This document shows, in pieces, positions 26,061 to 51,830 of a DNA stretch of 64,000 nt. The notes beneath the pieces are model-generated. The model did no database searches. It was not told where the DNA came from and saw nothing but the letters and a program-made list of their open reading frames with translations. The translations under genes and the position numbers were made by a program. Origin of the DNA: Branchiostoma floridae (taxonomy: Eukaryota); NCBI RefSeq assembly GCF_015852565.1, contig NC_136191.1, forward strand, positions 11,848,578-11,912,577. The letters are read 5' to 3'. Positions within the stretch are counted from its first letter, which is position 1, and each line of letters opens with the position of its first letter.

Positions 26061-26389
26061 CGTAGAAAGGTGACCAAGTGTTTTGTAATTGCTTTCCTTG
26101 ATTTTCGCGTGATATGTAAGGAGTTCTTCTGAATTCAGTGTAAAGCGTAATCAGACCAACCACCCATAGGCAGTCATTCTTAGCAGCCTCATGTTTTATC
26201 AGCAACATCTTTTTATTTTATTTTCAAAATGTATTATGCTATTCCAGTACTGGACTCTCGATGGCTGGCTCTAAATTTTTGCTTTCATGTCTTTGCATAT
26301 ATGAGTGAACAAGTCTTTTGTTCTCACATTAAGCCGTTTTTATTTCATGTATTTTGCTTCCGTTCTTGTACAGCAGTGGCCAACATTAA

Positions 26390-28510: not shown

Positions 28511-29132
28511 ATAGCCAAATTAATACCAACTATTACGGGCTCAGTTGAACTAAATTTACTAGTGATCAAATCAAGTACAAAATTCAGTGCTGGGTAGTTC
28601 TACACGTACGGCATCTATGTGTGCCATAATGTAGGGTCCACTAAGATGCAATGATTTTCGGAAGATTGTACTGAACAATTTATGCTAATTGGGTAGGGAA
28701 GATGATGAACTGAGACTATTTATACAATTAAATTTGCATAATCAGTTGAAAATACTAAAATCTTCACTAGAAATGGTTAATAAAATTTGTGTGAGGTCGT
28801 GAAACTCTAGTTTTATCTCTGGCACTTTGACTATAGACCGTAAAAAACCGTGCAGCCATGGCAGTAACGTGTCGCCCTGCAGTGGTGACATCATTATTCT
28901 CGCCCACCTCTGGCGTATGACTTAATCAACCTAAGCACGAAATTCCACTGTTGAGTAACCTTGACCATGGTGGTGGTAAGTGAAAGCTCATCATTTTTCT
29001 ACGAGTAAGCACAACAGGAATATGATGGACATGTGTCAACTAAGAAGCTTTAAGGTTATAATGTAGCTACCTTTGCCAGAATGGCTAAGGTTATGTTTTA
29101 GGCTTGTACGTCTGTCTGTCTGTCTGTGTGTG

Positions 29133-29790
29133 AACAGCATAACTCGAGAAGCTTTGGATGGATCCTGATGATATTTGGTAGGTGGGTAGGGGTCGGGAAA
29201 ACAACGGTCAAGTTTCATAATGGGCCCCCTAGCGACTTGCCAAGGTACTGCAGCGGAACTTCCATTTTTGATATCTCGTGTTCTGGACATGCTGTGGTTG
29301 TGATTTTTAAGTGGTAGATAGCCCTTGGAACAGAGAGTAAGTGCTGTGAGTTTGGACCACCTAGTGGCTTTTTTTGGAACTGCAGGCGTCGGTTTCCTTT
29401 CAAACTTTTGATGAGAATAACTCAAGAACGTTTTGACGGATCGCCATGATTTTTGGTATGTAGATAGAATGAGTGATGACTTACATAATGAGATACTGAT
29501 TATGCAAATCAACAGCTAATTTGCATAATTAATGAGGAAAGTTTATAAAGTCACTTCATTCCATGATAGAACTTTCAAACTTGTCACGTATGTAGCTGGA
29601 AAGGAGAGAAATGTCGATAGATATCTATTATGCAAATTACGACCTCATTTGCATAACTAATTAGAAAATATGAACGCATTGATGAATCGTCATGATTTTT
29701 GGTATGTAGAAAGCCTTAAGTAAAGACTTACATAATGAGACACCAATTACATAAATTATCAGCTAAGTTTCATAATTAATGAGAAAAGTT
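29133..29790. repeat. Three adjacent copies of a short interspersed repeat family (additional copies at about 37470-37560 and 41215-41345)
   Basis: A shared core ...ataactc(a/g)agaa(g/c)(c/g)tt.ggatgga(t/c)c.tgatgatatttggta(t/g)gt(a/g)g... appears at 29133-29250, 29407-29530, 29660-29790, 37478-37560 and 41218-41345. Several copies are followed by an ...attatgcaaat...ttgcataattaatga... segment. Confidence 0.5.
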
Positions 29791-30959: not shown

Positions 30960-31320
30960 TTCTTGGAAACGTTAACAGCAGGCCAGTGTTAGAAACATTT
31001 AAACCACTGTTTGACAAATATTTGTACCTTAGCTCTCGTGCTTTACTTTCGACTAGTGTCTGACGATAGGTATGTACATTCTTGGAAACGATAAACGTTA
31101 ACAGCAGGCCAGTGTTAGAAACATTTATACACCACTGTTTGACAAATATTTCCACCTTGGTTCCCGGCTCTTTACTTTCGACTAGTGTCTGAAGATGGGC
31201 ATGTACATTCTTGGAAACGATAAACGTTAACAGCAAAGCAGTGTTAGAAACATTTATACACCACTGTTTGACAAATATTTCCTCCTTGGTTCCCGGTTCT
31301 TTACTAGTGTCTAAGATGGG
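30960..31320. repeat. Roughly 120-bp tandem repeat x 3
   Basis: The unit tacattcttggaaacgataaacgttaacagcaggccagtgttagaaacatttatacaccactgtttgacaaatatttccaccttggttcccggctctttactttcgactagtgtctgaagatgggcatg repeats with minor changes. The minus-strand ORF 30955-31338, which has an internally repeated peptide, is an artefact of this repeat. Confidence 0.8.
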
Positions 31321-34300
31321 TATGGTGATTGAGGTCAATGCCTAATGAATGGAAACGGTAACGTCAACTGGGGGTTGCTGTGAAAGTACTACTAATATAT
31401 ATTTTTCGCTAGCTAGCTTTTGCTAACACAATTGTCATTTCTTTCAAGGTAAAAGAAAGTGTAGAACAACCCAGACTAACCTAAGATTTCAAAATCATTG
31501 TGGATTATATGTGAAAACAATCCGATGATCCATGGCGATTTGCACAGGAAGACGTTGTCTTGGACTGTGGTAGTTGGCCAGCGGTTTATGCGGTATTTTT
31601 TTTTTACAAAATGGGAATCTAACCTAAACGGGCTTCAAACATCTAGCCTTCTACTCGAGATATCAGTGCACGTTTTTATAAAGTTTGACCATACTGTATC
31701 TTAAGCTTCTAGTGCGGGGTCAAACCTGGTATCGCTAGAAAGGTCTATCTCCGAGTAATTGTAATCTGAAAACCATTTTTAAGTGTTAGCGTTTGCATAA
31801 AATCTACAATCTAAATATTTCATGGAGGTATGAGGTCGTCGAACCCTAGTTAAAAAAACAGATCTTTGGGGTAAATGCATTTTAGCTTACATACGTAAAG
31901 AATTGCTCATTTCAGTCATGGATACTGTTCTTACCACCGCAGATCTGCTTGGAGATGGATTGGCTGGATCTACCGGATTGGAGTGAACCATGCTATATTT
32001 GCTTGCAAATGTTCCCTATCTACTGAGTATAATTGCCTAATGCTGGCAACAATTTTCGGTATCACTAACAAAATAGTGTGTCTGACTACTGTGCATCAGA
32101 CTACTGTGCATCATCTTGTGTGCATCGTCTGATGCCCCTTTATGTCCCATGGGACCAGTGCACGGAGCTGTGCCCTCCAATCAACCCGCGTGACCCGGAG
32201 GTTAATAGGTACGTCCTCGAATTACCAGGGTGCAACGCGACACTCTGGCCAGGATCAGGACAGTCGTAGATACAAAGCTTTAAAGGTGTATATATAGATA
32301 ATTCGAAACAACTAGTAGTATTCAGCGAGATATTTTCACTCTTATTGACGTAGGATTGTGCTCCCTGTGTGCTTTTTTGATATGCGAATATTTTTTGTAA
32401 CTCTATAATAAAACTACGTGTCCTGACACTATAGTTAAGATGATCGAAACATCAATTAGACACTTTTTCTACCTACCCCGATCTTCAATGTGTTCTTTAT
32501 TTCATCAGTCAAGACTATGCTGACAGGTGTTCCTGGTTCAAAACAACGTTTCCTTTTCCTACCCTTTAAAGTGATTGGGTTTAGCATTTCATCACACATA
32601 GACCACAGTCAAATCCGGTTAGACTCCAGTCAAGTAGAGGCTTTGTGTTCAACATAAGGACTGAAAGTCAGCGTGGTAAGGAAACCATCATGCGCTGCGT
32701 TAAAACAAACCCCCTCAAACCGTCTGTGACAGGCAGACAGCGTTTCCGCCACCCCGTTGAAGGTTATTCGGAAGGTGCTAAATCTTGGTCTAAGTCAAAA
32801 CATGATATTCTATTTTACTCGAGTCAAAGATCCCGTCTACGATTGATCAAGTCCAGGTTTGAAACCGCTACGCTATGGACATTCTGCTGAGTGCTTAGGT
32901 CTTGGGGTTGAGGGAAGAAAGAGCGTACGCGTGATTATTGTACAGTTATCCTCGCCCTTTGACAAATTCTCCGTCTCATAGTGCGAAAGGCATTCCAAAC
33001 CAATTAGTACGGGATCGGTACGATTACTTGACATTCTGTCTTCTTTATTTTTCTTGAGGGTATCGCCTGTGGGAACCACCTAACTATCCCCTACCACATG
33101 TATCCAATTCTGTCCCTGGTAGCTGGAACATTGCTGTTGAAGCCCAACACCCAGATGGTTTAAGTCCTTTGACATATTCGTGAGGCACTGATTTATTCTC
33201 AGAACGTTCACGGTCACTGTAATTGGCAAACAAAGCACTCGAAGAAAGCCCGCGTCAGAACAACAGGAGAAAGCCACTCTGAATTAAGACTCTGGGTCGT
33301 CTTGCTCCAACGCATCTTTCCATATAGCAGACATTCGTCTTGTAGTTTACCTCCGCTGCCTGCAGCATAATCCTTCATACTTGATCTAAGTACAGACTTC
33401 GACTGAGTTCAAGGGAAGGGTGCCTCGCGTAGCCCGGCCGCCCGACATACTTAATCTATTTGGTCTGGAGCAGACCCACAGTTCTAACACCCACCAGGCC
33501 ACTAGAAGAACCTGTTTCTCGTCCTTGATTGACGTTTTCCAAAACAAGCACTTCAGGAGCTTACACATAGTCCCGGGGAAGCAAAGTAGGGGTTCAACTC
33601 TTCCTCTATGTTAACATCACGCTCTCTCCCGGGCCAGGAATCGTTAGACTGGAAGTCTACAATATACAGATTCGGCATTACGGGAGATGTCTCCTAATTT
33701 TGATGACGTCATTTGTGCACCGGAAGTGACGATACTGTCAGGTTCAAGACTCGAAGATTTTCGATGTCAGAATTATTGATGACAAGAATGCAAATGTTCG
33801 CATAACTAATAATGGTTTACTCTCACTATGTAAAGAAACTGAATAGATAAAGATTAGATAGACAAATAGATGTTAGAAACTTGTCCACAAAAGTAACAGG
33901 CATTTCATTTGTAGGACGATTTGTCACGGTACATAACTGTGTAAACATTACGTACAATGTTATTAAAGCTTCTGTAACTCCTGCTGCAAAAATCTTTGCT
34001 CTCGTGGTACCCCCAACGCTCAACTGTATCGAAGTCGCCCAGTCCTGCCATAGGAGACTTTCAACAGTACAGCCTGTGGGAGATGAAGCTAGCCCAGGCC
34101 TACCAGACGACACAAGGGCTTGTTCAGGACTCTACTTCCAAATCACGGTCGACGTCTGAGTCGACGTTTTGCAACGACCTGACGACGTTTGCTGGTGCTT
34201 GTAGCGGAAGGCGTTTTTAGGCGAAACACCGGTGATTTTCCTAGAACATCGGCGGGCGAGACTTAAAGAAGTGTACGAGAGATTTTTGGACTTTCATTCA

Positions 34301-34458
34301 TACATGACTGAGTCTGTACCCCGCATACTGAGTGTACACCACCTATACCAGCTGGTTCTCAGGGCGTGTTGTTTGGGGCGTTGACAACTACAAAGGAGTC
34401 TGGGTTTGTGAGAAAGGGACAAATCGCCTGTAGTGGACCTTATCGCGAAAGGACAACA

Positions 34459-37400
34459 ATGAGAACGGAGATGATACTCATAAGAACCACATTGTTGCTG
34501 CTGGTGACTCTGGTTGTGTTGAACGTATCGTGTGTGGGGTCTACCAAGGCGCAGCGCAAGTCCACGAACGGATACCAGGGAGGGACCAGGTAAGATTTCA
34601 TATGAATGTGATATAACGTTACATGCAGTTATTAGTATTACCAAGCAAACGTAACGAAGTGTGTTCAAGCGCAACATTGTAGAGAGTCAATGGTAATGAT
34701 GCTCAGGTGCAGATGTGAATGCGTGATATCAGCATGTCTAATTGTCTCCTGAATCACTCCTTGTAATAGCGTGGGCCCATGAGTGTTGCCCAGGTCACGT
34801 ACCCTTTGTAGAGTCGAACACACACGACCGTAATTTTTCTGCACTCAATCTGTCTCGAAAGTGTTTGCACGTGTCCAAAGCTTTGTGTATCATCAGATGC
34901 AACAATCGGTCCTTTGTGTACGCCCATGAAAACCTTAGCTGTGTCCTTTAAGAATCAGTTGGCTGGTTGAATATTATGTACTGGTTGCTACCCCCTGTTC
35001 CTATGTTTTTTAACTGTAAGACATGATGCCTCTGTCGGATAATATGAGGGTGATTGCTAAAGATACCGAAGACAAGGTTGTGAACCTGACTTTGAAAATG
35101 TCTACACGTTAGGTACGAAGCACACTGCACTGCATTATTATTGCTCTCACGCCCATCCCGTCCCTACCATTACATGGGTGTCGGGGATAGCACACAGCGT
35201 ACCGCACCTCGGCACGGCAGGAATTCTTACAGACTTGACTCTGGCCCGTGGATGGCATGTTAGGATGTGTGTATGGCGGCATGGCGACTACTCCTGTACT
35301 TTTCAGACACAGCCTCAAAAGTAACCATACAACACGCAGAGCCGTTTCCAGAAACATCACGTATTTAGGGGGAGCTCCGAGAATGTCTGTCAGATGGTCC
35401 TGTGCAATATTGAACAGTGATGGTGATTAACTTAAACAGTTATCCCCACGGGACAACAACGCAGGAAAATTGCAAGATCATAATGTTTTTTTTAACATTC
35501 CTTTGCGTTAACGTTGTCCTTGATTCGTTTGTGGCGACAGAAGACCTTGTCACCACGCCACTTGTATCCCTATGCCACTTTGTAATCCTGTTTTATCTGG
35601 CATGGGGACTTCGGATGAATTATGTCCACTATAACTACCAATAAACTACCTAATGAGACCAATTGCAAGCCCGCCTCTAGACACTACACAAACAGAAGGT
35701 GCTAGCCCGTCCCCTGTTTAACCTGAAGGTAATGCCTTGAACCATGACATGTTAATCTAACACAGTTGTTCCACAACCCTTACTTCCACAAACGTTATCT
35801 AATAAAGGGTTAATGCCCCGCCCCGAGGTGTATATGGTGAGATAATCCCTGGTCAGGTGCGATAACCACCGAATAAACCACCGAGTGAGCGTAGCGAACG
35901 AGGTGGTTTATGAGGTGGTTATCGCACCTGACCAGGGATTATCTCACCATATACACCGAGGAAAAGGCGGGGCATTAACGTTATTATCATATAGCCTATT
36001 CAACTGACACATATAGCCTATCCAACTGACACAGGGCGTTTTCTGCGTGTTTACTGTAGCAACCTGCGGATGACCGCGGGTGACCCCCGGTAGAACGCCC
36101 GTTCTGTTCGATCACGTCAGATCGAACAAGATTCGTGTTCTAATACCCCGAATAGAAGTCAAATTTGACCATCGGGCTTGTTTAGTGGGGGTGTTGAAAG
36201 TCATGTTCAATCTTTTTCTATTTAAAAATCATTGATATCTTTTTAATTGTGTTGTAGTTTAACATAAATTGTTCGAAATAATGTACAGTACGCTGTTTAA
36301 TAGATATAATCGATAAATACTTAAGACTAGTATTAGCGTCCTGTCCCCTCTATAATGGTGCGGTCCAAAAAGTGGTCGGTTATTCTAATAACCGACCACT
36401 TTTCAGGTTACTGCCTGATAACCCATAGGAAATGGGGGCCTCTGATTGGTCAACTCCATCTGGCTATATGATAATACATCTTAGATGTCAACATCTTAGT
36501 GATATCCATTGCATATACATGACCTTCCGTGAGCTAGACATCCTTGTCTGAGCCGTGAAGCCGACATATTTTGATATGGTGTTTACTTTTGAGCCGTCAA
36601 CCCAACGTGCAAGTGTAATTATGACATCTGAAATCTTATACGATGCTGTTTATTAAGAAGATCACTATTATAAGTGACATGGCTTTAGGTTAAAATGTCA
36701 TGCCCATAGTACCCAATAGACACTGTGAGCATTCTGGCTACTTTCCGGTTTAGATTAGTACATAGACAGAAGGCCAGGTATAAGGTAAAACGAACTCCTC
36801 CTGGACATGTGTTTTCTGTTATACGTGCTTGTGCTATCTTTGTAATACCTGTGAGAACAAATTATGGCCACGGCCAGTTCTAGAGAGCTAAGTATGTCTT
36901 GTCCGCTCTTGCATCACTTGTCTGGAGGTGCCTTGGCAGCGATTATTTCTGATTAACAGTCTTGTCGCCATAGTCGTGTATGGATGGAGAATGTCACGGC
37001 TTGTAACATTGATAAATAGACAGAATCTGTTAGATGATAGATAAAGTCAGAAACAGTCACCTGCGATCACCTGTATACACTGAGCTGCAGGTGCAAGTTA
37101 TTTTCCTCACACCCTGTAAATCTAACCCTTGTAGCATGTCTATTTAAAATCCATTATGTAAGCTTTTAATCATGCTGAAGTCAGACAGGTGGCACTGACA
37201 GTTCAAGGTGAACAGGAAGATGGCGACTTTGCTGCGGGCAGTCCTCTTTGGACTTTTTTAGTTTGTATGTATTGAATAAACGTGGTGCATATTCATGATA
37301 CTTAACATTGATTTAATCGGTTCAGAATGTCATCAATAGAATGAAGTGCTTCAGAAAACGTGCTAAGAGTTGAGGTCGCGTAGTAACTTGTTAATTACCT

Positions 37401-40400
37401 TCGCCAAGAAGGCACGAAGATTTTGTTTTCGGCGTCGTTTGCATGTGTGTTTGCTTGTACATGTATGTGTGTAAATGACCAACATAACTCAAGAATTGCT
37501 GGATGCGGATTGTGTCGATATTTAGTATTAGTATAGGGCAGGTCTTGCTTTTTATGTAAAATGATGCAAACATGTTATGGACTTCAATAAGCCAAGATCT
37601 GTGCAAAAATAAGACTTTTCAGTGTACCAATCACAGCTTAACCCTATCCAGGCTGAAGTAAGGTATGCAACATCACATCTTAAACGTTTTGCTGAGGAGG
37701 AAAAGAAGCTTATGGCGTCTGGTGTGTGGTTTTACCCGGCGGCTAGGCGGAAAGGAATCTTGGGAAAGGGGAAGTCTTATATTTTGTTTACAACTGATGA
37801 TAACCAGTTGAAAGACGTGCTGTATTCGTAAGGCATGTTGCCTGTCTGTAGGGGAAGGTACTTAGGTGGTGAGGGATATATCATGATCACAACAGTAGGG
37901 TGAATACCTGCTGGCCAAGTTGTTTCAGATGATAGGTCTGTGCAATACTGAAGGGTATTGTCAAGTGTTTGAATTTTGATTTACTGTACATTTTACAGGC
38001 CAAGGTTTCTAAAGATCAACAGATTAGGAAATATCTAGGCCAAAGGACGAACTGTGCACTGCTAGCAGTGGTGGTCCAAATGATGTATGGTGGTTTACAA
38101 ATTTGTAGTCGGCTGTGGCTTTGCGAGCTCAGCTTGCTAAACGCTAATTAGAAAGTAGTGGCGCTTTGCACGCCAATTTTTCGGTCTGCTTGAAACAAGG
38201 CTGGACAAAGTAATCGAAACGCTCTCCAGGCTTAGCTACGCTTGTTAACGGTGGTGCGAGGATAATTTGGGGCAAGGCTGTGTCAAAACGTTTATGTTGG
38301 AAACTTCTTTTTTCTATAGTGGTAAGAAAAGAACAAAGCTTTCTGGCATAGTCTACACTATAAACAGAGTAACTATACCGGTGTCTTGAAAATGGTCGTT
38401 AGTGTGTGTCTTAAAAGCATTCCACAGTGTGTTTAAGGGACCTCGGAATGCATAGGAATGCATATGTCTATACATAAATATTTCTGTATTTATACATTCA
38501 TGGAAATGTGATCCAATATTTAAGCAATCCAGACCTCACAGACTGGTTTAATAGAAATGTTCATTAGAATTTGTTTGACAAGACTGCAGCTGGGCAAGTC
38601 GGCCATTTTGGGGTCGAACTGTATGTGTCGGTCGAAGTTGTAGCGGTTGCAAAGCCTGTACCGAAGTTGCGAAGCCTGTCCGGACGTGTCCTAGGCTTCG
38701 CAATCGGTCTATTGTGTGTATTATAACGTTGCACTTCAGATTAAACAAAGGTTGGAAAAGCCACTTGCTGAACACTTAAGTTCAAGGGTGTCTGGCAGTC
38801 GTCCCAGAGTCATGCTTCAGGACTGACAGAGACTGATAACGGGATCACCGCCCGCGCGCCTTGCAGTTATTACTACATCCCCAGCCGACAGACAACCTCA
38901 ACAGTCATCAAGCAGGCGAGGTCGCAACGTTATCTCACATCTTGTACTGGTCTCGGCTTATCTCGTGATTGAAAGACTGTAAGTTCTCATTCATCCGCCG
39001 GCTCCAACGTGTGTGGTGACGCGGTGAGAGGTAGCAGCAGACAGCACATGTCAGGTGCACGGACGAACCGCGATTGCGTGCGGATCCGGCAAGCCGAGAA
39101 GCGGGTCGGTTTTGTTATAGGGTTCGACCCGACACCTCGGATACCCCTCGTTTGTTTCACGACATCGTCTGAATACCGTATCAGTCTATTCCTGATGACC
39201 TGATCACATGCAGTTGTCATGCGTTACACAGTCGCCGCCTGCTTTCATTCATAACTTCTGTTTATACTATAGTGTATAATCAACAACAACAATCTCTTCA
39301 GATGAATTTGAATCCGCAATATTTGACGATGAAAATTATGTGGTATCAATCTTAGTTTACAAACATGTCAATTGTTACTTTAACTAAATTATTTTGTCTT
39401 AAAGCTGACTGCGATCAGTTCAAAGCCCATCATGAACTAGTATATAAATTGTATTGACGCTATCGTTATTATGAATTCTGGTTCTAAAGTAACTAGGTTC
39501 TAAAGTAACTAGTCACTGCTGTCGCACGCTGATTACCTTCTGAGTAAACGTTCTCCAACTGCGAGGCAAAAAGCAGGCTCTTTGACACGCTACAACAAGC
39601 GGTTCTGTGAGAAACTCGATCAGGGTCAAGACGCCAGAATAGAGCTTCTTTAACTGTAGGCCACCCAGGGGAAAGTGAAGTTCGCTGAGTGACACCGGGA
39701 GCACGGCCTTTCTGGAGACCCTCACAGTAAACACAACTGTCGGGAGAGATGCCGGGGCCTCCCGGGCCGGTCGTCTTGCTGTCCCGGCTGTCTTCTGTCC
39801 GTCCGTCACCATCTCATCACCTTGAAACCAGTAAATAAATGGTGGTGCTTCGGAAGGGACTTGGACCTGGTGAATCCTTACCTCTTTTCGGAGCTCTGAC
39901 GGTCACAACGAAAAACTAGACTGGGGGAAATCTACGGAGCCTCTCATGCTTTGATATTTGGAGTCTGCTTTTAGATGTCTGATTTAAGTAGCTCAGAACA
40001 ACACGGTTGCTTCTAGACAATCCCACCATCTACCGACAAACTGCAAATGAATTCATGTTTCTTGAGCTAAACGTGCAAAAACAGCCCTGAAAATGTCATT
40101 GAATTCTAAACCCATACGGATTTGTGCCAGTTAAAACCAGAGATATAGCTTGACTACTGACTTAGCTTGACATGCTAGAGTTTATGGTCACGTGACACAA
40201 TGCTGCCACGATCGTAAGGAGTAAAGGCCTCGTAAATCCCAGGCTGTAGCTGCCAGAACCCGGATGTTCGTCTATCGCCATGACGCAACTATTGGGACTG
40301 TGGGATCCTAGGAATGTCAGGATTTATTGCAGGGGGTGACACTACATTCAATTACACATCCAGAGCGTGTTAGGGCGACACTGACCTTGTATCTCTTGTG

Positions 40401-42785
40401 CTCTTCGCGTTGCACCTGGTTTCGAATGGCAGCTAGTGATGAATGGCGTCTGTGCCCTTGGGTAGCAGAGTACGGGTGGTGTCTGGGGCCTTGGTTGGTC
40501 TTGGATCATTCTTGCAAACTCTTTATCATGGCTTTATTAATCCAATCAAAATCAATCAAAATAAAATGTCGCATTAATCGAGTTTAAGACCTGCTTATGA
40601 GACTCGGATGCCCAGGAGTGTTTTAATGTTTCCTCGTACAAACTCCCTTTAATAGCAAAGAAATCTTTTTGTTTTCGAAATTTCACAGGGGCGCAGGCTC
40701 ACATTGATATTGGCGGATGCACAAATCACAGATCCTCTTGAAATGAAAGATAGTAGTATGCCCAAAAAATACAACAGAAGTCACATATATTCTGAATGAT
40801 ACAGTTCAAGTCCCAGGCGAGAAGACAATGGATGTTACATCCCAGACAGCTGTTCAGGAGTGCTGTACATTTGTTGATCCAACAAGACCCATACATACAC
40901 CACTACCTCATATATTACACTCCTGTCTGCGCCGTTATCTCCCAGTCCCTGTCTCTGTCACGGCCGCCATGCTCCCTGCAGAGATAAGTGCTTGTTTTCA
41001 CACAAGATAAACAGGTGGCTGACCCAGCATAAATGTTTGGCGCGACTGAAGGGTTTCTACTTCTTCCAATCTACACACTGGAGAGTATATTAGGGCTGCA
41101 GTGCGTTGTTAGGAATGGCAACAACTAAAGCAATATTAGCGACAATAATAAACGACAAGAAAACGTATACGACGATATGAATTAGCATTGCGATTGGTTT
41201 TGACTTCTCTGTTTGTGCAGCATAACTCAAGAAGCTGTGGGTGGATCTGTGTGATATTTGTTATGTAGCAAATGTTACGGTGGCAAATGAAGGACCATTT
41301 TGATTGAGGGCCCCTGACGCCTTCTCAAAGTACTGCAGCATAGCATTTAGTTTGTGTATCAACAATATAAGATTATATAATCCAAGCTACCGATGATGTA
41401 TGACACAAGTCGCATAACGTACGTCTTGAGCTCTTGTCCGCTGAAAAGGTAAATCACCCAAAGAAATAACATGTCTGCACAGTTTGTGCATGTACCGAAC
41501 TTGAGAGGAAATATGTTCCTGCTTACCCTTTCAATTGACACTTAGTAATATGTGATGAGGCACATATGAGAGGGTTATGCGTTGTAATTATATACAGAAC
41601 ACAGGCGGACTGTTGAAAGACACATAACTCTTTTAACAGGCCATGTTTCAGCAGCCAAATGTTTGATCTCAGAGTTTACATAACCCAAGTTTAAAAGCCT
41701 GGCTAGTCCCCAAACTTAGCAGACGTAAGTTGTGAGGAGACCGCATGAAGTGTTATTTCTGTGTAAGTTATCCTTTGTTAACATTGACCACAGACTGTCT
41801 GGCAATTTGAAGTAGAAAACATCCGGCTGACGAGTCCAACCCTGTTTAATGTTTAAGTAACAGTCCGATCAATCTAAGTGGGTTTTAAATCTACTTTCAC
41901 TTGTTTGCTTTTCTACTGAGTAAGGCAGGCACGGTTTAACGGTTCATTGTGATTTGCTATAATGGATGTGTTGCCTGATTTGTGAACGTTGGGTCAAATG
42001 TGACTATCTTTTCTTTACAAAGATTAGATTCATAATATTATAGTGGTTGTATAATATAATGCATAATGAAGTTGAGAACACACTGACTACTATTATGTGT
42101 AACAGTTATGCATAGTGACAAATTCTTTTAGGTGCCTCTTCTTCCTATGGTTGCCCAACCTGAAAACGACAGCCTATTCAGCAGCCATTTCTGCATCAGA
42201 TTCAGCACTGAGATTCAGCCCCTAGCATCACGACAGAAGCACAAACCAGCCGCCAAGCCTACAGCTTAGAAAAGTGCTATCGTAGTAACGTTAACTTTTT
42301 TTCCCTTATTTTTTCGTTTTCAGTAACTGGTGCGCCTACACAGTGTCCAAGCAGGTGTCCTGTAAGGTTAAGAATGGCTCGGCAGTCTACAAACAAGCCT
42401 ACTACATGCCGGGGTGCTCCGTCTGGAAACCTGGCAACTGTTACAGGTAGGCTGGGGAGTATCGTGTGCGGGGCATGTGGCATGGGCAAAGTCAAGACGT
42501 CACTGTGAGCCCTCTCACGGTTAGAGATCTGAACGCATGTGCAGCGACAGGAATTCTAGGTGATATGTCAAAGGTAAAGGCCATAAAAAAGAAAACAGCC
42601 CTTGTCCTGACCATTGTTTCGATTTGCATAACAACGTCCAGGTGGGTTTTGTTTTCTTTTTCAGGGCCTTTACCTTTGATGTATTACCTAGAATTCCTGT
42701 CGTCGCACATACGTTCTGATCTCTGTGAGAGGGCTTATTGTCAGGATTTATGGTTGCTAATACCGTTGTAGTTATATGGTGATGG

Positions 42786-42884
<99 letters not shown>

Positions 42885-44879
42885 TGCTGATGATGATGAT
42901 GATGATGATGATGACGATGATGATGATGATGATGACGATGATGTTGATGATGATGATATAGAGGTGGTCACTAGCACAGATTTGACTATGTACTAGTGAT
43001 GGTCGTGTTCACTATCTCTGTCAGGTACCGGCGGACAGTGCGTCCCACCTACCGAGTGGCGTACAAGACCGTCACGGCCATGGAGTGGAGGTGCTGTCCC
43101 GGCTTCCAGGGAGCAACCTGTCAGGACAGTACGTAAACTAGAGTAGTCTCGTTGTAGTCTCCACCAGATTGACTACGCTTGCTATTGTAGGGACAATAAT
43201 TTGACAGGTGAGTTTTGCTACCAGAGGAGTTGGCTGACCGCTCAGCCAACTTTCCGGAGGGGAAACATTTTAACCTTAGCATGGACTGACTATCCAGATT
43301 CTTTTGCGGAATTCTACGATCACCGTACCCCAGTAAGAAAGTGGGGCTAGTCTCATTAGTTCAGTGCCCGGCTTTAATATTTTCCCATTATGTGCTAGAG
43401 GTAACAACGATTAGTCAAAGTACAATGATAATTGTACGCGACAAGGAATCTCCAAGATGAGATCTACCGGGTTGATGAAGAGACAAAGTGCGTCTCAAAA
43501 GCTTCCCAAGCTACGAACTGTAGTTGTGTGTATTTTGTTAAAAATTTGGTCATACTTCCACAGCTTGCTTCAACTGCACTCGTCTGACAGCTCTAGAGAA
43601 GCGGATGAGTGCTCTGGAGAACACAGTAAGTCTTAGCATTTCACTCACTTTCTCTTTGCGATAACTGTAGAATATGTTTTATTTTCATGTATTTGAACTT
43701 TGATCATGACTTAATTCTCCAACCTCAGTTAGCTACCATTACATGAAGCTAGTCTGCGATTTTCTGTGGTACAGAATAGACCAAACGCAACTATTGAAAT
43801 TTTACAGTTTTGTGAATCTCCTAGTCCATATATAATATTCTTATTGCAGGGTCTACCGGTTAGTAGTGACACGAAAGATATGCCAGTCGGCCCACCCCCT
43901 GTCACAAATGGCAAGAAAGCCGACTCGGAGGTGTTATCGACAGGACCTACAGGGCCCGTGGGTCCCCGTGGCCCCCCGGGTCACCCCGGGATTCCCGGGC
44001 GAGCGGGTCCCGAGGGCCCACGGGGAAGGCCCGGGGCACAAGGACCTACCGGGCCTCAAGGGCCTCCAGGACAACCTGGCTTACGGGGAGAAATAGGCTT
44101 ACCTGGGGAACAGGGTGAGTTAGCGAATTATATCAATTTGGTGAGTTGTTGTTGTAGGTACGTAGCAAAAGTTATGAAATAGATGACGAGGATTAGACAA
44201 GTTATGTAGGGGTCAACTGCGCCGACTCCCTTGTAATTTTCTTAAATAAACTTGCATATAACTGTTACATACAATTTACGTTCTGGATCTTTTTTGTAGG
44301 CGAACCAGGCATGCCTGGGACGCCAGGGTTCACCATGGAGGGTTTGCCAGAAGGTATGCCTGACATGTCGGCACTACTCCGCAAGGTGGATCTCCTAGCG
44401 AACAGAGTATCCTTATTGGAGGAACTCATGGCAGTGACGTCAGAAGGTATGAAAAAGGAATAATCTCGTCAGTGACTATGACTTGCCTATAACGTAATTT
44501 TTATGTGTAATTTTCCTGTACTTAACATGACTCGAAGAGCACACGTGTCAATAATTATAACTTCTTACAAAGAATACTCATAATTACCTGTCGTTCCACA
44601 GCGGGTGGATTTCTGCCCGGAGGAGGACCATCTTTACGCCCAGGACCGGGCACCTCACCTAAACCTGACGTCTCGTCCCCCGACTCGTCCCCAGGACCCG
44701 ATCTCGTCCCCAGGCCCCGTCCTGACACGTCACCAACTCCTGCTGAGTTACCAGAACCTGACGTCATCAGTCCTGACGGCAGACCTGGCTCTACCATATA
44801 CCCAGGGTTCCCCGGGGCTGACTATGAAGGGTCAGCAGACCACAATCTACCATTCCTGTTTGAGAGTGAGACTGTATGA
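34459..44879 (+). CDS. EMI-domain-containing short collagen (EMID1/Emu1 or COL26A1-like), 7 exons
   Basis: Exon 1, 34459-34589: signal peptide [27 protein letters not shown], donor GTAAGA. Exon 2, 42324-42446: [41 protein letters not shown] (EMI domain N-terminal half). Exon 3, 43024-43127: [33 protein letters not shown] (EMI C-terminal half with the WRCCPG motif). Exon 4, 43564-43625: [21 protein letters not shown]. Exon 5, 43850-44114: Gly-X-Y run [57 protein letters not shown]. Exon 6, 44300-44447: [11 protein letters not shown] plus coiled segment. Exon 7, 44602-44879: Pro/Ser-rich tail, stop TGA at 44877-44879. Splice phases are consistent across all junctions. Confidence 0.8.
35810..35960. 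repeat. Near-perfect roughly 150-bp palindrome (hairpin with roughly 60-bp arms and roughly 20-bp loop)
   Basis: gttaatgccccgccccgaggtgtatatggtgagataatccctggtcaggtgcgataaccaccgaataaaccacc [gagtgagcgtagcgaacgag] ggtggtttatgaggtggttatcgcacctgaccagggattatctcaccatatacaccgagg aaaa ggcggggcattaac. The arms are exact reverse complements apart from a 4-nt bulge. It lies in intron 1 of the EMI-collagen gene. Confidence 0.85.
36355..36405. repeat. Second short perfect hairpin (17-bp arms, 3-nt loop)
   Basis: aaaagtggtcggttatt cta aataaccgaccactttt, about 500 bp downstream of the large palindrome. Confidence 0.8.
42779..42957. repeat. (GAT)n microsatellite, about 60 units with a few GAC and GCT interruptions
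   Basis: Directly visible. It lies in intron 2 of the EMI-collagen gene, between the two EMI-domain exons. The poly-Ser and poly-Met ORFs at 42741-42977 are artefacts. Confidence 0.95.
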
Positions 44880-45193
44880 CGTACCACTGCGTGGACGTTA
44901 CGTAACGGTTGAAACAGTTACGTCTCTGCGTGACACAGATACATCTTTATTGTACACAAAACACTTTTAGAGTAGAGTTATGACATTTCTAGATACCACA
45001 GTAGTAAAATGTGTATCACTTGTCAAAGATATAGATACAAGAACACTACATTTAAGACGACGAGGCGTGTCAAGTAGATAGAATTCTATTCAAACTTACA
45101 GCGTTAAGGTGTTTTTGCCGGGGCGCCGAAGGCGCCCGGCTTTGTCCCCGGTTTAATGGTTCGTCCTTGGATGGGTCTGCTATGGTCGCAAAA

Positions 45194-45306
45194 TGTACCG
45201 TGCGTTTTTACGACAATTCTCAGCCCTTCTCAGCCCTTCAAATAAACGCAATGTACCGTGCGTTTTTACGACAATTCTCAGCCCTTCTTAGCCCTTCAAA
45301 TAAACG
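45194..45306. repeat. Roughly 57-bp direct repeat x 2
   Basis: aatgtaccgtgcgtttttacgacaattctcagcccttct(c/t)agcccttcaaataaacg occurs twice in tandem. Confidence 0.8.
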
Positions 45307-45488
45307 TTGTAAGAATACTGTTTATCCATGACCTCTACTCGTACAGAAAACATTGCAGCGCTCATTAGCAAAGTCTAGGAAAGGAAAATGTTTCTTGATT
45401 TGCAGTAAAACACTGGTCATGTAACATTTGAGGAGTTGTCGTTAAATCGCACGGTTCATTTTGCGATAGCGTTGACGGGTCCGGGTAT

Positions 45489-45688
45489 TTAGCGGAATAA
45501 CCCGGAATAACCCGGAATAACCCGGAATAACCTTAATAAAGGATGAAAGCTACCGAAATACAGTGTGCTTTGATAAGTTAAGATCGCAGAATGCAATATT
45601 TTGGCATAAAATAATGTATATATGGCCATGGGAACAAGAAATATTACGGTTATTCCGGGTTATTCCGGGTCATTTCGGGTTATTCCGG
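45489..45688. repeat. Small foldback: (CGGAATAAC)n microsatellite arms in inverted orientation
   Basis: 45489-45530 (gaataacccggaataacccggaataacccggaataacc) versus 45645-45688 (ggttattccgggttattccgggtcatttcgggttattccgg), separated by about 110 bp. Confidence 0.7.
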
Positions 45689-46602
45689 TAAATACCCTCA
45701 CGGGCGTTGACGGTGCGGAGGAGGTGAGATTTTTATCGTACAGAAATTGGTACAGTTTGTAAAGTTATCTTTCTGGAATTCGGATGTATTAAAATATAAC
45801 ATTACATTCTAAGGCGTAGTGTCATGTGAGTAAAATGAGCACGACATTTGACGAAAGATTTTGTGGAGGGTATACAGTCAAGTTTATTGTGCAACGATTG
45901 GAACAGTTTACGTGCGGGTGGGAGGGGGGCGTGCGTCTATATATGCAGCTGCAGGAGGTCCTGCAGGACATTTTCGATCGTAAGAGTAACGTACAATTTG
46001 AAAAGATAGTGATCATGAATTCGGACACATTGAAACATATTTCCAAGGAACGGTATATAGTTTTTTTAGTAAAACCAGTGTGTGGGGATTGACGAGAATT
46101 TAGATAGTTTAATGGTGCACTGTGCTTGAGCCGATGCGAGGCATTATGCAGGGCATTTTTGATTGTAAAAATATCGTACAAGTTGAAAAGATGGATCGGA
46201 TTCTAATACATTAAAACATACATTTCCAAAGAATAGTAGAAAACAACGGATTGTAGCTAACTGTTAAACAATCAGCAAAGCAGTTGGCAAGATGTCACAC
46301 CTGAACTTTTGTAGATTTTTGCTTTTTGTTGGTACTAGTAAGATGTTATGTGATCAAGACAATATTTTCTTTCTGTTTCAGTGACGCCTTAGACTGTTCT
46401 CTGCTATATATACAAGTGACACAGTAATATACAGAAACTTACAGCTAGCAAAAGTCTGTACTCAATAAGATTTTACACAGTACACATTTATACTTCTTCT
46501 GCTGAAATCTACGCATTACATTTTGCATCCAACCAAAGAGGTTTGAAAGAGAGTCCTTGATCCAACCAAATTAGACCTTGAGACCTATTAACAGATCATT
46601 GA

Positions 46603-46912
46603 TCACTGTGCATTTTGCACATACCAGACTCAATCGTGCCACTGAGCACTGCATTTTGCACACACCAGACCAATTGTGCCACTGAGCACTGTGCATTTTG
46701 CACACACCAGACCTATCGTGCCATTGAGCACTGTGCATTTTGCACACACCAGACCTATCGTGCCATTGAGCACTGTGCATTTTGCACACACCAGACCAAT
46801 CGTGCCATTGAGCACTGTGCATTTTGCACACACCAGACCAATCGTGCCATTGAGCACTGTGCATTTTGCACACACCAGACTCAATCGTGCCACTGAGCAC
46901 TGTGCATTGTGC
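46603..46912. repeat. 48-bp minisatellite, about 6.5 units
   Basis: The unit cactgtgcattttgcacacaccagacc(a/t)atcgtgccattgag is repeated head-to-tail. The ORFs 46571-47029, 46615-46896, 46630-46914 and 46676-46918 are artefacts of it. It ends 38 bp upstream of the ATG of the 385-aa ORF. Confidence 0.9.
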
Positions 46913-46949
46913 AAATAAAGTCAAGCAAAGAACACATATATTGTGAACA

Positions 46950-48107
46950 ATGTGTGAATCTATTTTATCGGGAAAATACCACCAAGGTGACATCATTTTC
47001 AGTGGAGATAATAGAGGCAAACAATGCACTGCAAATGCTTTAATGGCAGTTGTTAACCACAGTACTTGCAGACAAGCAATTACCTGGACAAGTACAGACC
47101 TTGATGGTGTACTTTTTCAAGGAGATGCACTATACACCTACATAAAACCATCACTAAGATCTGGTGTGGAGTTCCTCTCCGTTGATGATATTCCAGACTA
47201 TTTGCAACTTTACAACAATACTGTACGTGTATCAATAAAAGAGTCTTACACTGGAGACATATTTGCCACAGAAGCAGTCTATCCTTATTACACCTTAAAG
47301 AAAGCCCTAGAAGCAGCATTTGCTGAATCCAACACTTGTCTTTTCATAACAGCACATGGAATAACTGGTTCAACAGTAGCATTGTTGCACGCTGATAACA
47401 AGTATTTTGTTTATGACTCACATGCCAGAAGTCCCATAACAGCATTGCCAGATAGCCATGGCACTTCTACTTTAAGCATGCACAGTTCAAACAGCAATCT
47501 AGTTTCATTCTTGCAACAACTTAACTGGAACACAACATGCAATTTTGAGGTTGTCCCAGTACAAGCAGAAAATGTTTTCTTATCAGTTGAACCTACTGGT
47601 ATACACATTATCAATCTGACTAGCAATGTTTCTTCTATGATTGAGTCAGAAAACTGCTTTCAAGTTCAACAACAACACACATACACCTTGGTTAAACCAG
47701 AGTTTGTATCTACGAAAGAGAACCTACAACAACCAAACACAGCATTTCCATTTGCACCACATTGTAACCAAAGTACTGGGAAAAACATTGTGCCATGCAC
47801 CACAAGCAAACATCCAAGTGCTATGCCAGAGAACAGGAATGAAGGCCTCTTGAATCAATTAGTAATGTCACCAAATGCAGCATCAAATTTAAATGATAAA
47901 AAAGTGCAAGGTCTTGCAATCCAAAGCGCAATATGCAAGGACAAACAAGAAAAACAAACCTATCAACAGAAGACAGAGAGTCTTGCAGAACAAAGAACAT
48001 CATACAAAGCAAAGAAAGCAAATGAGACCTGTGAGCAAAAAGCAGCACAGCAAAGAGCATCATATAAAGCGAACAAAGGTTTCCAGCCAACTTCCCATAG
48101 ATTTTAG
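46950..48107 (+). CDS. Intronless 385-aa ORF of uncertain function; N-terminal half has a Cys...His arrangement compatible with a papain-fold thiol peptidase (OTU/UCH-like?), C-terminal half is Q/K/A-rich low complexity
   Basis: Longest uninterrupted ORF in the window. Candidate catalytic residues: Cys in GDNRGKQCTANALMAVVNH and His in KYFVYDSHARS, about 130 aa downstream. No introns. It is immediately preceded by a 48-bp minisatellite (46603-46912). A 45-bp internal fragment (about 47521-47565) is re-duplicated just downstream (about 48135-48180), which suggests a multi-copy or mobile origin. The family assignment is unverified. Confidence 0.35.
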   Translation: MCESILSGKYHQGDIIFSGDNRGKQCTANALMAVVNHSTCRQAITWTSTDLDGVLFQGDALYTYIKPSLRSGVEFLSVDDIPDYLQLYNNTVRVSIKESYTGDIFATEAVYPYYTLKKALEAAFAESNTCLFITAHGITGSTVALLHADNKYFVYDSHARSPITALPDSHGTSTLSMHSSNSNLVSFLQQLNWNTTCNFEVVPVQAENVFLSVEPTGIHIINLTSNVSSMIESENCFQVQQQHTYTLVKPEFVSTKENLQQPNTAFPFAPHCNQSTGKNIVPCTTSKHPSAMPENRNEGLLNQLVMSPNAASNLNDKKVQGLAIQSAICKDKQEKQTYQQKTESLAEQRTSYKAKKANETCEQKAAQQRASYKANKGFQPTSHRF

Positions 48108-49004
48108 ATATAAACTTCTAGTTTAATAATGATGCACATTTTACTGGAACACAACATGAAATTTTGAGGTAGTCCTTCCAAATGCGCCCCGGCCAGCTTT
48201 TTTTAAAAGCTTTCTTGTTTAATCACAAGATGGATGTCGTGCATTTAAACCTTCCTTAGAGCATTTGAGATGTGTTATCTTAGATATCAGTACAAAGTCC
48301 AGAGCATTCCTCACACTTCTTGTCTTTCAACTGAGCATTTTGAAATATCAACAAGAATAAGATATCATCTAGGGCTACAATTAAGTGAAGTTGTCATTAT
48401 CTTATTGGATATTAAACTTTTATTTGCAAATATATATATGCTACTATTGTAGTCTCGATCGCGAGTACATGCAGTGTGGGTTTATGTTACAATGTTCAGT
48501 TTATAATGTCACATACTTAAGCAGATTGTATGTCCAGTTTCCAACGACAAAATAAACAGCAGGCACTCTTGAAGTTTTGGTGGTTTTCCAGAAGTCTAAA
48601 TATGGCAATGTTGCCATAATTCTGCAAAACAACCTGCTATCAATTACTTCTAAACTTCAGGAGATGACAGGTGATGATAAAATGTGAGAAACGTTTCATT
48701 CTAATCGTCCTCAGTGACTCTGTATACAGTGTAATGTGTGCTTATACTGGGAGCTTTAGAATGCCAATTGTGTTTGATGTACTTTCTCTATATATGGCAC
48801 GTTCTGGCATCGTACTCAAAAATTTATAAAAATAGAATGTCACTTTCCGAACCAAAAACACCCAGAAGTGTATTTCAAGCGTAGTATGCCTTGTTTCTTG
48901 GACGAACCGGGGCAGAAATAAATTCCTGGTCACCTTATTGTCACAGTAGTATTGATCAACCATTGGGATTGTGGACTATCATTAGTACCAATTCCTGACA
49001 CAGT

Positions 49005-51247
49005 CTAAGTCCCGGGTACCCTTCTCCTGGAGACGACATACTCGATGTAGCTGATCATACCGTCGTTGTTTGTATCGTCTTCAGACAGGATCTTGTCCAC
49101 AAGACCTGGTGAGAAAATCCCAATAGTGTAAGCAACACTGGTCTAGTCTTCTCGTCATTACCTAGTAATGGTAGGAGTGAGACATACCCGAAGATGAGTA
49201 TACAACAGTTCTCATTCGGTTTTCTCTAACCATTTGTGGAATTCTATTGCCTAGCTGTGTACTTTTATTTTTGTGTCTTATACATGTATCTATCAACTTT
49301 TCGTTAGATATTGGGCAGTGCTGATTGGCACTGCTAGGTGTCGTTGCAGTTTAAAGGATGTGGTCTCAAACATGACTAAGGCTGTATCACCGCTCATCAC
49401 AATTCATGACAGGGGTAAATTTTCTATCGATCGAAACGGCATCTTGATCTAGCCAGTACAATGCCCTGAGGAAGGTAGAAGAAGTTCTATCCAAAAGTTG
49501 GCAGGTAGGTGATATTGGTTGTGTACAAATAACCCTTTTAAGGCTCAACCTCTCACCAACATGATGAAAGTATTCATGGAGATATAACGCTAGTTCACCT
49601 TTATTCGCGGGGTGACCTTTATCCGTTGTCTTTAAAAACAGCACATTTAGGAGTATTAAGTCTGCGGACTGTGGTTTCAAATGTGCAATATTTAAAAATG
49701 TTCCAATATGAAACCACCGTCCGTCGACTTCATATCCCTAAATACATTTTTTTTACAAACAACGGGTATAGGTCACCCTCGGATAAAGGTGAACCAGCGT
49801 TACCTGTGAATACGGTCATCCTCTCCTGGTGTTCCTGGTTGGTCCGTTCTCTTTCCTGTTCAGCAGTCTCTCCCTCAGGAGCCGGGCGCCCGAAACTGTC
49901 GTAGTCGGAATTATGGGATACCGCCGCCATGATCTCTAACCCGTCCAGATGGTGGTCTTTGTCGCTATCGTGAGATCTGACGTACATATATGATAAAAGG
50001 GCAATAAAACTGAAATAGGGTTTCAGAGGTGTTGTCAAAAAGAACAATCACAAGCCTTACACAGGTGTGCTCGGATTACCTGGCTATCGAGAGACCTGCT
50101 TTGACCTTAAGGGGAAAGGAATAATTGCAAACTTACAAACGCTGCAGAAATATCAATACCACGTGTATCGATATATTATTGACTATTAACTAGCTTTCAC
50201 ATTTGCACGAATATGTTAATATTAGGCAACTAATTGGATACTTCCTGGCTGTTTTTGTCCAAGAAAAGAGCATGCAAAAACATTCACAGACATTCTGTTC
50301 ATTCTTACATGCGGTGTCGTACCTTACTGTAGAGTAGCTCTTATCACAAGATATGTTTTGACACATTTTGAATGTACTTCACTACATATGAATGTCATTC
50401 GTACAAAAATAATGATTCAGAAGTAAATTCATACTTGAAGAAATGGAACTCTCTCTCCGCTGGGGTCATGCTGTTGATATCCTCTTCAGACAGCTCCTTG
50501 ACGTGTTCCTTTAGATGCCTGGGAAATATATATGAAAGTAGAGATATATATTTGAGTGTGTTTATGTACATAAGAGAGAAACAAATCGCCTGATTGCAGT
50601 ATCTTTAATAACCGCTAGATAGCGTGGTTCCGCATCGGCAATGATGTGTGCTTGGGTGGTACCTTAATGTTTAGTAACCCACGATATGCTATATCTAAAT
50701 TGATATAGGATCTAATTACCGAAGTTTCTCCGTTGCTTACGTTATCACATCTCTATGATGACCAGGTGTTCGTTTTCCCACACATGGAAAAGTACTTCAT
50801 GTTTTGTTTGCCCTGCAGTCGGCCCAGTTTATGTAACGTTACAGTAGGAAAACAAAACACAGCGAATCAGCTGCTACCACGTAGAACTTGGAAACATCAG
50901 TTAGCATTACTCACAACTGTTAGTTAATAGTATTCCTGAGTACGTATACCCTGAATTTTTTATGTCCATGACTAGCAACAAACATTGTTCTTCGTTACAT
51001 TTTGATGCGCACTGATAGGCACATACGTACTGACAACCCTTGCACGATGAAATATGTGTGACATTCCCATATGTTAGATAAACGCCGTTTCTATATCATA
51101 CACCTTACCCCTTGTCCTGAAGCATTTGTGCGTCGCGAAATTTGTTGTCGTCGTACCCCTCGGGAGACAAGCAACGCGTCTGAGGGACCAGGAGCAGGAC
51201 CATGGCCCCGACCACAGCCGGGAGAACAGCCGACGACATTGCCACAC
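49005..51247 (-). CDS. MCFD2-like EF-hand protein (multiple coagulation factor deficiency 2 homologue), tandem copy 1 of 4
   Basis: Four exons on the minus strand. 51108-51247: signal peptide MAGSVAMSSAVLPAVVGAMVLLLVPQTRC...FRDAQMLQDK. 50436-50518: GHLKEHVKELSEEDINSMTPAEREFHFFK. 49797-49966: SHDSDKDHHLDGLEIMAAVSH plus a copy-specific insertion NSDYDSFGRPAPEGETAEQERERTNQEHQERMTVFTG. 49005-49115: GLVDKILSEDDTNNDGMISYIEYVVSRRRVPGT then stop; second EF-hand loop DDTNNDGMISYIE. Compare vertebrate MCFD2: [49 protein letters not shown]...DDDKNNDGYIDYAEF. Confidence 0.8.
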
Positions 51248-51830
51248 TACCCGCCATCCCTCTGTCCCGGTGTTAACTAGGAGTACGCCTACCGCTGGTT
51301 ATCTTTGCAAAGCTCGTGTGAACGTTTGTCAATGTTTAACCCATAGTCTAGTATCAACGACTGTAAACTTGCGTAAAAAGTTGTCGGTCATTTTTACGAG
51401 TATCGTGTATGATGTATGCGTAATGTCCACGGACTGATACTTTTTGTTTGTGCGTAAAAAGGCCCCATTAAATGATGAAATACGATGTAAAGTTTGACCT
51501 TGTCAAGCAAAGTCTTATCCTACTAGTGAAGTGAGTACTTAAGATACCAACAAGCAAGAAGACAACTTCATTGAATATGTTAGCGTATTTTTCTTTATTT
51601 CTTTATCTAAGTTTGATTTTGTTTGAACCTTTATCTAGAGTCAACGACCGTCCATCATATCTATTTCCATGATGAATCCACTATGCACAATAAATATAAG
51701 AAAACGTACTGTTTTATATAGGTCTAAGTTTAACAGCATTAGACAACGTCTCTTGAATAGTTTTCTAACTGGTTTGAAGTTACTAACAGATTTCTATTTG
51801 GTAACCACTTTTTTTCCAGCCTTTCAAAGA

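Follow-up and report, generated by a model that had tools for sequence, protein, structure and literature searches.

Vertebrate COL26A1 (EMID2/Emu2) is built from a signal peptide, a single N-terminal EMI domain with a WRCCPGF motif, a C-x-NCT motif directly after this domain, collagen repeats and a C-terminal helix. Vertebrate EMID1 (Emu1) has the same overall architecture, and a C1-XXXX-[S/T] site is O-fucosylated in human EMID1 and in multimerins (PMC11949838). Here we describe a gene of the lancelet Branchiostoma floridae that shares these COL26A1 elements, with a putative signal peptide and a helix that aligns with LREALKILAERVLILE, and that also carries the O-fucosylation-type site in its EMI domain. 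The gene occupies positions 34459-44879 on the + strand of a 64-kb stretch of contig NC_136191.1 (64,000 nucleotides (nt); hereafter, the window). A literature search for EMI-domain collagens in amphioxus returned no papers. We are highly confident that the locus is an annotated, single lancelet gene of the Emu family, and that its intronic palindromes and GAT array are structural polymorphisms of an ordinary kind in a very heterozygous, repeat-rich genome.

Gene structure and protein family

The gene was rebuilt by hand from window positions 34000-45500 as seven exons, with GT-AG boundaries at all introns, compatible phases and a reading frame of 1,110 nt (369 codons and a stop). Exon 1 (34459-34589) opens with the ATG at 34459, encodes a putative signal peptide and ends in phase 2 (..ACC AG) before GTAAGA; intron 1 (34590-42323) then runs for 7,734 bp. 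Exon 2 (42324-42446), entered after TTTTCAG, encodes the first half of the EMI domain as far as NCYR and includes the C1-XXXX-[S/T] motif, and exon 3 (43025-43128) encodes the second half. A CFNCT motif and a short coiled-coil-like stretch follow in exon 4 (43564-43625), a linker and most of the collagen triple-helix repeats in exon 5 (43850-44114), the last collagen repeats and a conserved helix in exon 6 (44300-44446), and a Pro/Ser-rich tail in exon 7 (44602-44879), which closes with the stop codon TGA at 44877-44879.

In an exact-sequence look-up, the rebuilt 369-residue translation was the same, residue for residue, as RefSeq XP_078599416.1, which belongs to the hybrid assembly of B. floridae x B. 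japonicum. The window is therefore the B. floridae haplotype of that hybrid; the gene is already annotated, as RefSeq has exactly this 7-exon structure. The initial annotation had named neither the species nor the existing model. The hybrid-assembly strategy has been set out elsewhere (PMC10013865). The best database match, ‘collagen alpha-1(XXVI) chain-like [Branchiostoma floridae]’ (XP_035690950.1, 369 residues), is 98% identical over its full length, followed by B. belcheri and B. lanceolatum proteins at 85-86%, vertebrate COL26A1 at up to 197 bits and EMID1 at up to 132 bits.

The protein contains an EMI domain (Pfam PF07546, residues 45-114, E = 8.2e-16, 59 bits against a cut-off of 25) with seven cysteines and the WRCCPGF motif, and a collagen domain (Pfam PF01391, E = 1.7e-15) formed by one uninterrupted run of 22 Gly-X-Y triplets. 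No further Pfam domains were found, and there was no C1q match at E <= 0.01. A putative signal peptide, with a basic n-region, a hydrophobic core and a c-region of small residues, can be read from the sequence and is conserved in three lancelets. The C1-XXXX-[S/T] motif corresponds to C47-AYTV-S52. In a side-by-side reading, the hydrophobic spacing of the exon 6 helix equals that of the vertebrate LREALKILAERVLILEHMIG / LREALKILAERVLILE motif, and the helix is invariant in the three lancelets.

Judged by this predicted protein, the gene is a lancelet EMI-domain short collagen of the EMID1/COL26A1 (‘Emu’) family. The initial annotation had proposed an EMI-domain short collagen from the DNA alone, and both Pfam domains and the best matches bear it out. 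Comparison with EMID1, COL26A1, EMILIN and Multimerin places the protein in the EMID1/COL26A1 family. EMILIN and Multimerin share an N-terminal EMI domain followed by coiled-coil-like sequence, but this identity was rejected: the lancelet protein has no C-terminal gC1q domain and is also much shorter. The predicted order of elements would be a signal peptide, a Cys-rich EMI domain (exons 2-3), CFNCT with a short helix, the 22 triplets, a second helix and a Pro-rich tail. By analogy with its vertebrate relatives, such a 369-residue protein is probably a secreted matrix component that trimerises through its collagen and helical segments and interacts through its EMI domain.

Neighbour joining (321 columns, 100 bootstraps) places the lancelets and the acorn worm outside a gnathostome group made up of EMID1 (87%) and COL26A1 (57%), whose joint node has a bootstrap value of only 57%. 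A strict one-to-one orthologue of COL26A1 was rejected, as the lancelets do not group with vertebrate COL26A1 to the exclusion of EMID1, although this node is weak (57%). Because they fall outside both gnathostome genes, the lancelet gene is probably a single pre-duplication relative of COL26A1 and EMID1 alike. The RefSeq label ‘COL26A1-like’ reflects best-match similarity, and the higher bit scores to COL26A1 fit a history in which COL26A1 retained the ancestral form.

An ancient junction between exons 1 and 2

Exon 1 leaves two bases of a codon to which exon 2 adds the third (T AAC TGG TGC GCC TAC), giving S-N-W-C-A-Y. The resulting junction, GYQGGTS|NWCAY, is common to both RefSeq models of B. 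floridae, to the Joint Genome Institute (JGI) model C3YDH2, which differs only by a spurious upstream extension, to two B. belcheri models and to the B. lanceolatum model. At the nucleotide level, exon 1 lies at the expected position and is 97% identical to the B. floridae reference, 81% to B. lanceolatum and 83% to B. belcheri (81-84% across the assemblies of these two species).

The three intron positions around the EMI domain, together with their phases, are the same in COL26A1 of the mackerel (Scomber): a phase-2 intron before NWC, a phase-2 intron at YR| inside the EMI domain and a phase-1 intron before C-x-NCT. The acorn worm Saccoglossus has the same phases as the lancelet, and its signal-peptide exon (..AG|gt, phase 2) ends two residues further upstream. 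On the strength of this comparison, the exon 1-exon 2 junction is an ancient deuterostome intron, because a phase-2 signal-peptide exon ends just before NWC in acorn worm and mackerel too. The in-phase splice of the exon at 34459-34589 into the NWCAY exon at 42324, predicted in the initial annotation, thus matches XP_078599416.1, the further lancelet models and the position and phase of the mackerel intron.

No other protein-coding gene is called within intron 1 in four annotated assemblies. With the junction conserved and no such gene present, we set aside the possibility that the signal-peptide exon belongs to another transcript, a judgement drawn from sequence comparison. A coding exon hidden within the intron was likewise rejected: no intron-contained open reading frame (ORF) exceeds 99 residues, and the block that the B. 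belcheri GenBank model Bbelb_149090 treats as extra exons has stops and a frameshift in B. floridae. An ORF of 127 residues overlaps the 5′ end of the intron, and the three intron 1 ORFs scanned gave no Pfam match.

Conserved non-coding blocks in intron 1

Intron 1 measures 6,969 bp in the B. floridae reference, approximately 7,010 bp in B. lanceolatum, and 12,239 and 12,725 bp in two B. belcheri assemblies. With the splice-site flanks trimmed, its alignable share is 79% for B. lanceolatum and 41-45% for B. belcheri, compared with 0% for introns 2 and 3 in both species. This conservation across species had not been part of the initial annotation.

The most conserved block of the whole locus lies at 39503-39701. 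It shares 89-91% identity with B. belcheri, or about 90% between species reportedly at least 50 million years apart, and over 100 nt are almost invariant in three species; it is more conserved than exons 1, 5 and 7 (76-84%). Stops interrupt all of its + frames, and two − frames are open in all five sequences. A minus-strand coding exon was nevertheless rejected, as substitutions lack a 3-periodic pattern (12/7/7), neither the candidate donor nor the start codons are conserved, and no gene is called there. A structured RNA was rejected as well, with no Rfam match at E <= 1 and alignment-fold energies close to those of column shuffles (z = -0.5 and +0.3). No counterpart of the block was found in the Saccoglossus or mackerel loci.

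A second conserved block follows at 39728-39866. It contains a GTAAATA-AT motif at approximately 39831-39840, with one substitution in B. lanceolatum, and an ATG that is not conserved in B. belcheri. A third block, at 38749-38977 (+ strand, 229 nt), is conserved in three species and has splice-like edges, with an invariant CTTCAG| on the left and |GTAAGTTCTCAT on the right (AG and GTAAGT edges, respectively). The region from 38.8 to 39.2 kb is locally rich in G+C and CpG.

Intron 1 most likely carries cis-regulatory DNA, a reading suggested by the length maintained in three lancelets and by its many conserved non-coding blocks. More specifically, we propose tentatively, and with rather less than even confidence, that the blocks at 38749-38977, 39503-39701 and 39728-39866 form an unannotated functional unit, either an intronic enhancer or alternative promoter, or conserved ‘poison’ exons that regulate expression.

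A recent insertion carrying the palindromes of intron 1

Alignment of the window to the homologous locus of the B. floridae reference chromosome (L001) is collinear, at 90-95% similarity with few gaps. One of the segments without a counterpart is a 667-bp insertion at 35805-36471, flanked by a 5-bp TAATA duplication at 35800-35804 and 36472-36476. The empty site in the reference is precise, AACGTTATCTAATA|CATCTTAG, with one copy of TAATA where the window has a copy on either side of the insert. B. lanceolatum and B. belcheri likewise have no insertion at the orthologous position. Because both outgroups lack it at this site, the 667-bp segment is, by sequence comparison, a derived insertion.

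Its 5′ end is formed by a near-perfect 187-bp palindrome (35800-35986), with 96% complementarity between its inner arms (35827-35882 and 35902-35957). As DNA, the 191 nt of 35800-35990 fold at -84.8 kcal/mol (z = -20.6), and none of 200 shuffles was as stable (0/200). The insertion further contains a 22-bp tandem duplication (35988-36033), a weaker 23-nt inverted repeat (36091-36142) and a perfect hairpin with a 17-bp stem and a 2-nt loop (36368-36403). A near-perfect palindrome of about 150 bp and a second perfect hairpin, both reported for intron 1 in the initial annotation, are thus present. The accompanying idea that the intron collects palindromes did not hold, as all of its palindromes sit in this one haplotype-specific insertion and the density of inverted repeats is no higher than in the rest of the window: 36 pairs of at least 17 nt in 64 kb (0.56 per kb) against about 3 in the 7.7-kb intron (about 0.4 per kb).

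One B. belcheri assembly has a related copy at a non-orthologous site, approximately 4.5 kb further along the homologous intron. This copy is 89-92% identical, in reverse orientation, has the same 5′ end, TAATA|AAGGGTTAATG, and retains a single palindrome arm; a second B. belcheri assembly has unrelated sequence in its place. This was the one further copy found in approximately 91 kb of homologous loci searched. The palindromes would thus be the cargo of one recent insertion, a non-autonomous mobile element segregating in B. floridae, and its mobility is suggested because the related copy lies elsewhere in the B. belcheri intron and is missing from the other assembly. No terminal inverted repeats were found (the best terminus-to-terminus match is 6 bp), and there is no ORF of at least 70 residues. 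The absence of terminal inverted repeats rules out a miniature inverted-repeat transposable element (MITE) in the strict sense; inspection by eye for Helitron-like ends gave no fit either. No tRNA-derived heads of short interspersed nuclear elements were found.

Beyond the insertion, intron 1 holds two diverged copies of a short interspersed repeat. One, at 37390-37564 (matching over approximately 37390-37540), is present in both B. floridae haplotypes, and its 175 bp in the window correspond to 39 bp in B. lanceolatum. The other, at 41176-41360, is older, and each of the three species has it at the orthologous position. A third copy, at 29068-29275, matches each of the two at 64-66% identity, which rises to 71% over a shorter stretch (41208-41339 against 29123-29254). 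The two intron copies do not match each other at E < 0.01. The repeat that the initial annotation had noted in intron 1 is therefore weakly confirmed, through the resemblance of both copies to the third and not through any mutual match.

A microsatellite and an inverted repeat in intron 2

Intron 2, which separates the two EMI exons, holds a (GAT)n microsatellite at 42781-42957 (+ strand) with 59 units, namely 48 GAT, 8 GAC and 3 others, and a longest pure run of 20. Tandem Repeats Finder calls the array at 42776-42957 with a score of 280, and the window has no other long trinucleotide array. The B. floridae reference has 6 units in place of 59, and the array is missing from B. lanceolatum and B. 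belcheri. Intron 2 itself is 578 bp long here, 283 bp in the reference and unalignable in the other two species. The initial annotation had expected the array to be polymorphic, and the 59 and 6 units of two B. floridae haplotypes bear this out; it would be a B. floridae-specific microsatellite that expanded in this haplotype.

Upstream of the array lies an inverted repeat (42523-42724) that the initial annotation had not listed, with 75-nt arms at 42523-42597 and 42650-42724 that are 88% complementary. The reference haplotype has only the left arm, and the right arm falls within the same alignment gap as the GAT expansion. The outgroup introns cannot be aligned, and either allele may be the derived one. 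A microRNA of the MIR8562 family was rejected for this hairpin: Rfam gives 56 bits against a gathering score of 211, the family is a plant family, and the right arm is absent from the reference. The weak score is what any long hairpin would give.

Weighing alternative explanations

Intron 1 might hide an unannotated exon, in the form of a cassette at 38749-38977 that is either a stop-introducing non-coding (‘poison’) exon or an alternative untranslated exon. Consistent with this, the CTTCAG| and |GTAAGTTCTCAT edges are invariant across the three species, the adjoining blocks at 39503-39701 and 39728-39866 are strongly conserved too, and Bbelb_149090 runs two coding exons through the homologous sequence, joined in phase to exon 2. 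However, five other models from three species (RefSeq, BraLan and old JGI) skip the segment, which in B. floridae has stops in the relevant frame and whose 229 nt are not a multiple of three; an in-frame stop is found in a further B. belcheri haplotype as well, and the lengths of interspecific indels do not preserve the frame. Given these stops, and a length and indels that are not multiples of three, the segment does not, on present alignments, qualify as a conserved coding exon. It could serve as a poison or other non-coding cassette exon, but we consider a hidden exon in this intron unlikely overall. It is far less likely still that the palindromes of intron 1 are functional elements of the gene, as precursors of hairpin RNAs or microRNAs or as a regulatory cruciform, and not passengers. 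The extreme stability of the palindrome fold would suit such a role, as would the 92% identity of the palindromic sequence to the B. belcheri copy, well above the approximately 75-79% of alignable intron sequence. Yet neither the reference allele nor the orthologous site of either other species has any of the palindrome segment. The B. belcheri copy, with a single arm and in reverse orientation, sits at a different point of the intron and is not in the other assembly of that species. Rfam has no match for the intron 1 palindromes, and their high identity between species fits a recently active repeat family. We regard a functional role as barely credible.

A further explanation concerns intron 2, where the expanded (GAT)n, alone or with the adjacent inverted repeat with 75-nt arms, might alter the splicing efficiency of the EMI exons in this haplotype. 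The array and hairpin do sit in a 578-bp intron between these exons, doubling the 283 bp of the reference, and a long stem in the pre-mRNA could in principle influence exon pairing. The array, however, is separated from the donor by 334 nt and from the acceptor by 67 nt. Each haplotype retains an intact donor, polypyrimidine tract and acceptor, and RefSeq predicts the same exons for the two. The suggestion in the initial annotation that the array could affect splicing is accordingly not supported by the splice sites and exon models of the two haplotypes, and we judge this explanation to be very improbable. As far as the sequences indicate, neither the insertion nor the array has a demonstrated effect on the gene.

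Several points weigh against reading the locus as an annotated Emu-family gene with ordinary polymorphisms and a regulatory first intron. The exon 1-exon 2 junction is drawn from annotation models and conservation, and Bbelb_149090 places extra coding exons in the homologous intron. The probable regulatory nature of the intron 1 blocks derives from conservation alone. The 667-bp element has no terminal inverted repeats and no superfamily assignment, with two copies seen in the DNA examined, and the repeat length in intron 2 was compared in two B. floridae haplotypes only.

By itself, the gene carries limited weight: it is in RefSeq, and its structure is the one that vertebrate and hemichordate relatives predict. 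The analysis mainly corrects how its introns are seen, in that the ‘palindrome-collecting intron’ comes down to one segregating insertion, length polymorphism of the GAT array is confirmed, and intron 1 is conserved and not filled with junk. The locus offers a few candidate regulatory elements of a matrix gene older than the genome duplications of vertebrates, and only the conserved blocks of intron 1 merit further attention.

Haplotype differences and neighbouring sequence

Two haplotypes of this single 10-kb gene differ by the 667-bp insertion, a 116-bp indel, approximately 290 bp in intron 2 and a 3.1-kb insertion downstream. The indel lies at 39846-39961, where the window has 116 bp and the B. 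floridae reference approximately 8 bp. B. lanceolatum aligns into this segment as far as 39914 and B. belcheri as far as 39866; because both align into its first part, the reference allele is probably a deletion.

The downstream insertion (approximately 3.1 kb, 45117-48210) lies just beyond the gene in a T-run, is absent from the B. floridae reference and has the ends GCCGGGGCGC / GCGCCCCGGC. It contains a 385-residue ORF (46950-48107, + strand) whose N terminus matches Pfam Herpes_teg_N (E = 4e-7; a herpesvirus-tegument-type cysteine protease fold) and PDB entry 8add_A, deposited as ‘ATP-dependent DNA helicase’ (E = 1e-12). Among its repeats are a tandem array of 7.5 copies of a 42-bp unit (46597-46913), a duplicated stretch of 58 bp (45192-45306) and inverted (CGGAATAACC)4 blocks at 45493-45532 and 45648-45688. 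The insertion is probably a fragment of a helicase-encoding transposon.

Further downstream, small EF-hand genes on the − strand occupy approximately 49000-58000, as placed by homology to L001 20414-29361. Their products have 157-176 residues with weak EF-hand_7 / EF-hand_FSTL1 matches. Such neighbours are also found in B. belcheri, with an EF-hand match, and B. lanceolatum has a minus-strand neighbour at the same place with no recorded family match. Other large inverted repeats of MITE-like appearance lie at 11288-11618, 49610-49778, 9629-10020 and 52907-52969, with arms of 110, 73, 35 and 23 nt, respectively; palindromes are thus common throughout the region. Tandem repeats with long units occur upstream of the gene at 8759-9343 (163 bp x 3.6), 25806-26087 (126 bp x 2.2) and 30967-31305 (129 bp x 2.7).

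Comparison with known systems

MITEs make up approximately 6.7% of the lancelet genome, in which they are abundant and recently active, and heterozygosity is 3.2-4.2% (PMC10013865). The 667-bp insertion resembles lancelet MITEs and other short non-autonomous elements in being short, non-coding and rich in inverted repeats, in having a target-site duplication, in being polymorphic for presence or absence and in having a relative in a second species. It thus shows the other MITE traits tested (target-site duplication, small size and no coding capacity) and differs from MITEs in its lack of terminal inverted repeats.

Among the vertebrate relatives, fish COL26A1 proteins are the best non-lancelet matches (45% identity, 197 bits), and they share with the lancelet gene the introns before NWC, at YR| and before C-x-NCT. 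The lancelet protein has 369 residues and one collagenous run, whereas vertebrate COL26A1 has approximately 440 residues and two collagenous domains; the Pro/Ser-rich acidic tail is specific to lancelets. Similarity to EMID1 is lower (best 132 bits), and EMID1 has an extra segment between the EMI domain and its CLNCS motif that the lancelet, acorn worm, scorpion and nemertean proteins do not have.

The acorn worm gene LOC100378089 of Saccoglossus kowalevskii is also short (347 residues), with one short collagenous run and the same exon plan. It differs in sequence, being 35% identical over just 40% of the query, and its introns have no detectable similarity to those of the lancelet. In mackerel COL26A1, intron 1 is just 254 bp and the long intron is intron 3. 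The acorn worm gene, by comparison, shares with the lancelet a very long intron 1 (approximately 21.9 kb) after the signal-peptide exon. If the conserved blocks do form a functional unit, regulatory content and not the accumulation of junk would explain the long first intron of both lancelets and the acorn worm.

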